From a virus: a stretch of DNA of 64,000 bases. The notes below the pieces were generated by a model that searched no databases, had not been told where the DNA came from, and was given only the letters and a program-made list of their open reading frames with translations. The position numbers were made by a program, and so were the translations under genes. The stretch is from the IMG/VR virus record IMGVR_UViG_3300045988_183940; one strand, 5' to 3'. Of this stretch, positions 33,692 through 33,720 are shown in pieces. The first letter of the stretch is position 1; each line of letters begins with the position of its first letter.

Positions 33692-33720
33692 ACAAAATTA
33701 TATTGACAATTTTGTCAATA
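33692..33720 (+). promoter_or_regulatory. palindromic operator-promoter cassette upstream of rtcB
   Basis: TTGACAATTTTGTCAA-TACA-TGATATAAT. The -35 box is the left half of a 16-bp palindrome, with a 17-nt spacer and an extended -10. Confidence 0.55.

Follow-up and report, generated by a model that had tools for sequence, protein, structure and literature searches.

Analysis of a 64,000-nucleotide stretch of DNA, IMG/VR virus record IMGVR_UViG_3300045988_183940 (here called the window, meaning this whole stretch), revealed eight copies of a promoter cassette in which a palindrome lies over the -35 hexamer. We refer to promoters with the palindrome over the -35 as class A. On balance, we favor the reading that the cassettes make up a global, autoregulated repressor-operator regulon, that the 123-amino-acid (aa) helix-turn-helix (HTH) protein XRE123 encoded in the same window is the protein that would bind them, and that the DNA belongs to an element resembling the Inocles, the giant plasmid-like elements of oral Streptococcus (PMC12340149).

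The palindromic promoter cassette

The 16-bp palindrome TTGACAAWWTTGTCAA, searched with up to two mismatches, occurred at eight sites in the window, against a mean of 0.41 and a maximum of 2 in dinucleotide-preserving shuffles of the window, which supplied the chance expectation. The full 29-mer TTGACAAWWTTGTCAATANATGNTATAAT with up to three mismatches occurred at seven sites against an expectation of 0.00, and the eighth copy, 5' of the XRE gene, carried four mismatches. The 29-mers of cassettes 4 and 8 (at 40516 and 62054) were identical. These counts bear out the first-pass annotation of this DNA, which had described a recurrent palindromic promoter cassette with an identical pair at these two positions and a degenerate copy before the XRE gene. 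All eight sites read TTGACAAWWTTGTMAA and then TATAAT, and no palindrome copy (up to two mismatches) was found in the window away from such promoters.

The 29-mers are delimited by the two hexamers, starting with the -35 and finishing with the -10, and all eight are given below beside the span of each cassette, its dyad and the gene that it is predicted to drive.

11753..11783, + strand: cassette 1; 29-mer 11755..11783; dyad TATTGACAAAATTGTAAATA at 11753..11772, -35 hexamer at 11755..11760, TGn, -10 hexamer ending at 11783; gene, a 221-aa open reading frame (ORF) at 11827..12492 with no Pfam match, followed by a terminator-like hairpin at 12499..12519
19464..19494, - strand: cassette 2; 29-mer 19464..19492; dyad TGTTGACAAATTTGTCAATA at 19475..19494; gene, a 172-aa ORF at 18905..19423 (- strand)
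33701..33731, + strand: cassette 3; 29-mer 33703..33731; dyad TATTGACAATTTTGTCAATA; gene, rtcB at 33768..34907
40514..40544, + strand: cassette 4; 29-mer 40516..40544; dyad CATTGACAAAATTGTCAATA; genes, a 95-aa ORF at 40582..40869 and a 331-aa ORF at 40869..41864 (no Pfam match)
44015..44045, + strand: cassette 5; 29-mer 44017..44045; dyad TATTGACAATTTTGTCAATA; gene, a 117-aa ORF at 44085..44438
45239..45269, + strand: cassette 6, degenerate; 29-mer 45241..45269; dyad TATTGACAAGATTGTAAATA; genes, an ORF at 45304..45744 and small ORFs after it
61290..61320, - strand: cassette 7, the XRE gene promoter; 29-mer 61290..61318; dyad TATTGACAAATTTGTAAATA
62026..62056, - strand: cassette 8; 29-mer 62026..62054; dyad TATTGACAAAATTGTCAATA; gene, a 209-aa ORF at 61365..61994 (- strand)

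Five of the eight coordinate pairs in the first-pass annotation were wrong by 1-20 nucleotides (nt) and have been moved: 33692..33720 to 33703..33731, 44007..44035 to 44017..44045, 45233..45261 to 45241..45269, 61270..61307 to 61290..61318, and 62017..62054 to 62026..62054. The sequence read at the first of these sites, that of cassette 3, is ...ATATTGACAATTTTGTCAATACATGATATAAT.... The labels "hydrolase" and "family B" that had been attached to cassette-driven genes were not confirmed, the genes after 40516, 44017 and 45241 giving no significant Pfam match. Cassette 2 is arranged divergently from a neighboring non-palindrome promoter at 19523..19551 (+ strand), which heads an operon containing the other two HTH genes of the window, and the 209-aa ORF of cassette 8 runs up to a terminator-like hairpin that closely precedes cassette 7. 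In every relative examined, cassette 7 carried the arm TTGTAAA and had no correctly placed TGn.

The hexamers TTGACA and TATAAT were matched at 12 of 12 positions with a 17-bp spacer at all eight sites, and seven of the eight carried a TGn extended -10. The gap from the -10 hexamer to the ATG was 31-43 nt at every site, each ATG being provided with a ribosome-binding site. On this evidence the eight sites very probably function as promoters, and they are likely to be strong promoters of the extended -10 type read by the housekeeping sigma factor (sigma-70/sigma-A). Besides these, about 20-30 near-consensus promoters in the window lack the palindrome, so class A is a minority of its strong promoters, a point that the first-pass annotation had missed.

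The 16-bp inverted repeat was confirmed, as was the identity of its left arm with the -35 hexamer, but the dyad proved longer than had been described, extending over 20 bp (T-R-TTGACAA-WW-TTGTMAA-Y-A) and covering positions -37 to -18. Its symmetry center lies at about -27.5, its arm centers are 9-11 bp apart, and it ends 7 nt from the -10 hexamer. Among the 306 distinct full-length cassettes pooled from all loci, position -1 was T in 86% and position 0 a purine in 90%, and the mirror positions 17 and 18 were a pyrimidine and A, respectively. Positions -1 and 0 lay outside every search pattern used to collect the cassettes, and in 196 non-palindrome TG-extended promoters from the same loci they carried only 0.12 bits each. 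Positions 7-18 were near-invariant in class A and carried about 0.1-0.3 bits in other strong promoters. The right arm was TTGTCAA or TTGTAAA, in about equal numbers in the wider family. A TRTG just 5' of the -10 hexamer, the usual -16 element of Gram-positive promoters, was common to class A and non-palindrome promoters.

Comparison of the orthologous rtcB promoter in seven relatives revealed that the central pair of the dyad was TT, AC, AT or AA and that positions 19-23 varied, with the arms being kept. In the relative L070 (67-81% identical), the flanks were unalignable, the rtcB cassette (position 6740) was intact, and the neighboring non-palindrome promoters kept their own type. Orthologous footprinting was limited to this one diverged contig; word-based searches with XRE123 and its 417-aa neighbor gave only relatives with 86-99% identity. 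Fixed symmetric arms, a free center and conservation beyond the sigma contacts are together the signature of a dimeric DNA-binding protein, and the dyad is probably a repressor site. With the center of symmetry at about -27.5, in a promoter whose hexamers already match the consensus, a bound protein should keep sigma region 4 out, and this favors repression over activation as the sign of regulation.

The cassette was also widespread in related DNA. All ten 20-kb loci fetched via the XRE protein contained cassettes, with 2-7 copies each, and a relaxed 29-mer matched at least 120 stretches in metagenome contigs, many of which were multi-copy; one 128-kb contig carried at least 15 cassettes. The inferred 5' leader, taken as the -10-to-start gap minus 7 nt, was mostly 22-50 nt in about 250 copies from relatives with a callable downstream ORF. 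The ORFs downstream of cassettes fell into at least 78 unrelated protein families, so the cassette is not a residue of gene duplication; on this evidence it is a regulatory unit set before many different genes. Across one genome from each of 185,579 species, the relaxed 29-mer gave 24 scattered single matches, none of them in Streptococcus, and was multi-copy in no reference genome, and in viral contigs it gave two matches; the strict 29-mer matched neither the reference genomes nor the viral contigs. With only scattered single matches in these collections, no host regulon or phage bearing the cassette is indicated.

Homology blocks between the relatives (loci L001-L159) often stopped where a class A cassette begins on its upstream side, as at about 9193 in L004 compared with about 9201 in L001. 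Gene modules have apparently been swapped as "cassette plus gene" units, although in loci that were unselected for the cassette there was only a small excess relative to other intergenic regions with promoters.

A TG-extended -10 was present on both sides of a single palindrome in 40 of the 306 copies (about 13%), each arm being the -35 of a divergent promoter. One such two-way (Janus) site, at 6518..6559 of L001, reads ATTATATCATTTG-TTGACAAATTTGTCAA-TACATGATATAAT and has a dnaN-like gene on one side and a 113-aa gene on the other; the eight window cassettes include no two-way site. One dimer at a Janus site would control both directions. Two back-to-back -35 hexamers are a possible origin of the palindrome, an origin that does not explain why the right arm is conserved in the 87% of sites that are one-way, or the occurrence of TTGTAAA, which makes a poorer -35.

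XRE123 and its distant homologues

Three HTH_3 proteins are encoded in the window, of which XRE123 alone lies behind a cassette.

60878..61249, - strand: XRE123, candidate repressor; 123 aa (ATG start), with HTH_3 at the N terminus and a helical domain of about 50 aa at the C terminus
22306..22797, + strand: double HTH_3 protein, 163 aa; alternative regulator without a class A promoter
about 22800..23467, + strand: C-terminal-HTH protein; alternative regulator without a class A promoter

XRE123 is the most likely repressor on the comparisons that follow. Its HTH_3 match (Pfam) covered residues 19-65 of a 126-aa GTG-start translation, corresponding to about residues 16-62 of XRE123. The gene is the first of a long minus-strand operon, and the gene after it encodes a 417-aa protein without an HExxH motif and without a Pfam match. 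XRE123 was 98-100% identical across relatives (including L157-L159), whereas the adjacent 417-aa, 100-aa and 378-aa proteins were 86-94% identical; this comparison is unbiased because three of the loci had been fetched via the neighboring gene. The exact XRE123 sequence (ATG start) occurred in 73 blocks of a public assembly collection.

An exhaustive search placed XRE123, over its full length, in a broad family of proteins of about 115-130 aa, with 158 representative clusters at E ≤1e-10; with a single XRE123 homologue as the query, no match was found in viral contigs. Against the PDB, the family profile gave a full-length match to 9sf2 ("Transcriptional regulator") and HTH-only matches to DdrO, SinR, ClgR, ImmR of ICEBs1, controller proteins of restriction-modification systems and an "Immunity repressor". 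Ten homologue loci from plasmid and phage collections were inspected. The next gene after the homologue was annotated as an ImmA/IrrE metallopeptidase on the Cetobacterium and Acinetobacter plasmids, and it carried an HExxH motif in phage LLS and Treponema.

Perfect palindromes were found 5' of the homologue on two of the plasmids. On Cetobacterium plasmid NZ_CP092520.1 (L161, about 1111..1137), the palindrome ATTTTTTTACAA-ttt-TTGTAAAAAAAT abuts a TTGACA -35, and on Treponema plasmid NZ_AP025289.1 (L167, about 840..860), the palindrome is ATATTTACAA-t-TTGTAAATAT; the arms are 12 bp long in one and 10 bp in the other. Both contain the half-site TATTTACAA/TTGTAAATA, which is also the right arm of the class A cassette that precedes the XRE123 gene. 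Different palindromes accompanied other homologues, namely TTAATTT-N2-AAATTAA at the two Clostridioides loci, ATTTACCT-tg-AGGTAAAT in Acinetobacter and AAATCAACA-N6-TGTTGATTT in an E. coli phage. The recognition-helix region read S-x-x-Y-L-S-x-I-E in XRE123 and in the Cetobacterium, Treponema and phage LLS proteins, and T-x-S-(Y/H/F)-L-S-x-V-E in the remaining homologues. In this sample of ten loci, the half-site match is suggestive of a link between the XRE123 protein family and the TTTACAA half-site. As for the origin of the cassette, TTTACAA and TTGACAA differ by one tolerated difference, which suggests that the half-site could be merged with a consensus -35. The Cetobacterium and Treponema palindromes are probably autoregulatory operators of uncharacterized repressor-protease modules on megaplasmids.

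The first-pass annotation had proposed that the palindrome is the site of a dimeric repressor, that one regulator acts at all copies, and that an HTH gene at 60878..61258 is autoregulated. This proposal is partly supported: its core survived the sequence and comparative tests applied to it, backed by the symmetric conservation, the fixed arms, the conservation of XRE123 and the half-sites of its homologues, with the binding itself still a prediction. Its second candidate, 22306..22797, gained no supporting evidence and belongs to an operon under a non-palindrome promoter.

Proposed repression, rival explanations and known systems

In the mechanism that we favor, a dimer of an element-encoded HTH repressor would bind the 20-bp dyad, whose left half-site is the -35 hexamer, and would compete with sigma region 4 for that hexamer, so that all class A promoters would be repressed together. 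The cassette at XRE123's own promoter is a weaker form (TTGTAAA arm, no extended -10), and through it the system would be negatively autoregulated. A large, mixed set of operons (rtcB and the XRE operon here; elsewhere dnaN-like and SSB-like genes and dozens of unknowns) would likely be kept at a fixed level of expression while the element is resident, and the same operons would be expressed in a burst once the repressor is missing, as upon entering a new cell. That the site is bound and represses, which protein binds it and what the regulon is for are all inferred from sequence.

Several observations weigh against this account. XRE123 is accompanied in the window by at least two further HTH_3 proteins, and another HTH protein lies under a class A promoter in a relative. 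The right arm is imperfect (TTGTAAA) in half of the copies, and the spacing between the arms is not constant, the 2 nt of the class A dyad comparing with 1 nt in Treponema and 3 nt in Cetobacterium. Neither an ImmA/IrrE-like protein nor any protein with an HExxH motif was found in the window, and a tblastn search of about 1 Mb of related loci with three proteins of the ImmA type gave no match; a partner protease could lie in a part of the element outside the sequences seen. A single-sequence AlphaFold model of XRE123 was too poor for use, with a predicted local distance difference test (pLDDT) score of 49.

The presence of three HTH_3 proteins in the window also raises the question of whether another protein of the element is the binder, be it the double-HTH protein (22306..22797), the C-terminal-HTH protein (about 22800..23467) or a regulator encoded outside the window. 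A tandem two-HTH protein could read both arms as a monomer, a 218-aa C-terminal-HTH protein lies under a class A promoter in L093, and the window covers only about 64 kb, whereas the element measures at least 200 kb. However, the genes at 22306..23467 have no cassette, their operon starting at the non-palindrome promoter at 19523, and the family-level half-site evidence exists for XRE123 only, so that we regard another binder as unlikely. A palindrome without any dedicated regulator, representing a two-way promoter core whose second arm is kept in one-way copies by inheritance or for polymerase recruitment, seems to us improbable. It would account for the 40 of 306 copies in which both arms serve as a -35 with a proper TG-extended -10 on each side, but in 87% of the copies the right arm lacks a partner -10 and is nevertheless conserved like the hexamers, while at orthologous sites the nearby spacer positions 8-9 and 19-23 are free to vary. 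Moreover, TTGTAAA, present in half of the copies, weakens the -35 (to TTTACA) but keeps the half-site of the homologues, and the conserved TR at -37/-36 and its mirror YA lie outside the -35 hexamer.

The dyad could instead be read by a regulator of the host, such as a BceR/GraR-type response regulator, whose box ACAAATTTGT falls within it, and the element would then be wired into a host response. The core ACAAWWTTGT matches the palindrome of the GraR/BceR-type box, and TGACAAATTTGTCA stands at the end of S. aureus graS, in primers of a study in which GraR was footprinted on the vraFG promoter (PMC4314665). Against this, the relaxed 29-mer is nowhere multi-copy among the 185,579 species and gave no match in Streptococcus among its 24 single matches, boxes of response-regulator activators sit upstream of the -35 and not at -37 to -18 of a consensus promoter, and the conserved flanks reach well past the 10-bp core, all of which makes a host regulator a quite improbable reader of the dyad. 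We consider it very improbable that the cassette is a portable homology patch, a terminator-promoter junction for module exchange conserved by recombination. Of 655 homology-block breakpoints, 98 lay within 40 nt of a cassette against 20 expected, with a peak in the -15..-1 bin, and the cassette of the 209-aa gene marks the point where L004 starts to align with the other relatives. In the 11 loci that were unselected for the cassette, however, the apparent excess largely vanished, intergenic regions with a class A promoter showing 0.47 breakpoints per site compared with 0.37 for those with other strong promoters; a conserved patch attracts alignment ends artificially, and recombination leaves the two-fold symmetry and the drifting center between fixed arms unexplained. 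A repressor dimer, with XRE123 as its candidate, stays our preferred reading.

In function, the closest systems to the proposed XRE123 regulon appear to be the global repressor circuits of KorA/KorB, P1 C1, DdrO with its radiation/desiccation response motif (RDRM), and ImmR. KorA/KorB of the IncP-1 plasmids (RK2/RP4) and C1 of the phage-plasmid P1 likewise place one short operator at many scattered strong promoters, overlapping the core promoter, with the regulator under its own operator and unrelated operons co-controlled. There is no sequence relation, and the half-site here is the -35 hexamer itself, whereas KorA binds over the -10, KorB binds upstream of the promoter or far from it, and the sites of P1 C1 lack symmetry; no KorA, ParB/KorB or C1 domain was seen when all ORFs of the window were scanned with Pfam. 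XRE123 shares its size, two-domain layout and HTH profile matches with ImmR/ImmA of ICEBs1 and DdrO/IrrE of Deinococcus, and in the case of DdrO one palindrome also marks a multi-gene regulon. It differs from them in that no partner protease was found in the window or in about 1 Mb of related loci, and that its matches to the solved DdrO and ImmR structures are HTH-only; the RDRM palindrome of DdrO is unrelated in sequence to the class A operator.

The repressors of lambda, 434 and P22 resemble the proposed arrangement in being dimeric HTH proteins on a dyad with half-sites about one helical turn apart, over the -35 and spacer, and at lambda-type operators repressor and polymerase are mutually exclusive. 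Unlike lambdoid operators, the class A operator is single at each promoter, with no sign of tandem cooperative sites or a lysis-lysogeny layout, and is fused to a perfect consensus -35. The use of one dyad for two divergent promoters, seen in about 13% of copies, recalls tetR/tetA of Tn10. Streptococcal ComR/Rgg systems are alike in that an XRE-type HTH dimer reads a dyad near the -10 in oral streptococci; the core of the ComR/Rgg box is GACA-N4-TGTC. XRE123, at 123 aa and without a peptide-binding domain, is unlike these regulators. ComR-type promoters combine a dyad, a T-rich spacer and a -10 and are activation-dependent (PMC6703854).

Several known boxes were compared with the dyad and rejected. 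A ComR/Rgg box does not fit the perfect -35, the 7-nt distance from dyad to -10 and the lack of a T-rich spacer, and a MerR-type promoter, with its dyad inside a 19-20 bp spacer, does not fit the 17-bp spacer found at all eight sites. The Rex, CtsR, CopY/BlaI cop, PrfA and FNR/CRP boxes were set aside on account of differing spacing or half-sites, and the GraR/BceR box, although contained in the dyad, is in the wrong position.

The element and the meaning of the proposed regulon

The guanine-plus-cytosine (GC) content of the window was about 32%. When the window was compared in 20-kb pieces by megablast with 50,697 phage and 72,556 plasmid records, no match was found, and the related contigs read were human oral metagenome assemblies of up to 206 kb, one of them from PRJEB6997. 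Conjugation-type genes lie within 486..10296 and at 42055..42732 (both + strand), with an SLT transglycosylase gene among the remaining ORFs, and the window also encodes a DinG-type helicase and RusA; SPFH/flotillin, DUF488 and two RNase H1 N-terminal-domain proteins were detected among its ORFs, and relatives encode a dnaN-like gene.

486..3245, + strand: TrbL/VirB6
4299..5753, + strand: VirB11-like ATPase
42055..42732, + strand: NlpC/P60 hydrolase

Inocles are 245-368 kb long with a GC content of 32%; they encode type IV secretion functions, DinG, Pol III and transglycosylase, and neither isolate genomes nor plasmid databases contain them (PMC12340149). Compared with the text of that paper, the element agrees in its oral origin, GC content, size above 200 kb, absence from databases, and type IV secretion, DinG and transglycosylase genes. 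The Inocle marker InoC, a protein of about 454 aa with the Replic_Relax domain PF13814 (PMC12340149), was found in no window ORF, a negative that leaves room for membership since the element (at least 200 kb) extends far beyond these 64 kb; the Inocle_004 primers for polymerase chain reaction from the same paper were absent from the window and the related loci. The element is probably an Inocle or a close relative of one. Genes of IS605-family OrfB/TnpB lie beside the conserved XRE block in L004 (4632..5738) and L008 (1750..3646), one of them with a resolvase; these insertions fit the richness in insertion sequences reported for Inocles.

Among the strong promoters of the window without the palindrome, a second near-consensus flavor with the spacer motif TTGAYWnAnATTAAR...TRTGnTATAAT was found in 19 of 31, compared with about 5% expected on a rough estimate. 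Examples are listed by position.

8241, 19523, 25288, 28063, 29193, 31314, 35950 and 38065, + strand: ATTAAR-flavor promoters
48595, 53310 and 55037, - strand: ATTAAR-flavor promoters

As a clean second palindrome class this motif was rejected, being asymmetric and loose in the wider set, and we propose no factor for it.

The stretch 31314..34907 (+ strand) comprises a strong non-palindrome promoter (31314..31342), two tRNA-like elements, a Ro60/TROVE-like gene (31786..33168), one ORF and rtcB, the last under its own class A promoter. Rfam tRNA matches covered 31485..31604 and 31613..31688; ARAGORN also called the second, with an unusual anticodon of two bases. By analogy, it looks like an RNA-repair module resembling the bacterial Rsr/Y-RNA (YrlA)/RtcB arrangement, and its layout was kept in the diverged L070 (2476..2696 and 6740 onward). 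Two tRNA genes, at 48351..48421 and 48462..48553 (both - strand), lie just downstream of the strong non-palindrome promoter at 48595 (- strand), one of them being a tRNA-Ser with anticodon TGA. A Bro-N domain protein is encoded at 48922..49770; Bro-N is often an anti-repressor domain in phages.

A further joint reading, which we hold tentatively and put somewhat short of an even chance, is that the dyad and XRE123 together are the master regulatory code of Inocle-type elements present in most humans. One frozen pair would then gate about a quarter or more of the transcription units, including replication and RNA-repair genes; fusion of the half-site to a consensus -35 would give rise to Janus promoters that are shut by one dimer, and the 29-mer would be a sequence-only diagnostic of the family in metagenomes.

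What is offered here is a regulatory unit consisting of a defined operator, a named 123-aa candidate repressor and a list of target operons. Inocles were described only in 2025, and the founding paper does not contain the words "promoter" or "regulator" (PMC12340149); the cassette is a first regulatory handle on these recently recognized, widespread giant elements and a handy signature for finding relatives in metagenomes. The control design is classical, and the value of the finding lies in the barely studied element rather than in a new principle. The finding points to a single feedback-controlled switch over much of the element, and such a switch would bear on how a passenger of 200-370 kb limits its cost to the host and on its quick loss in culture.

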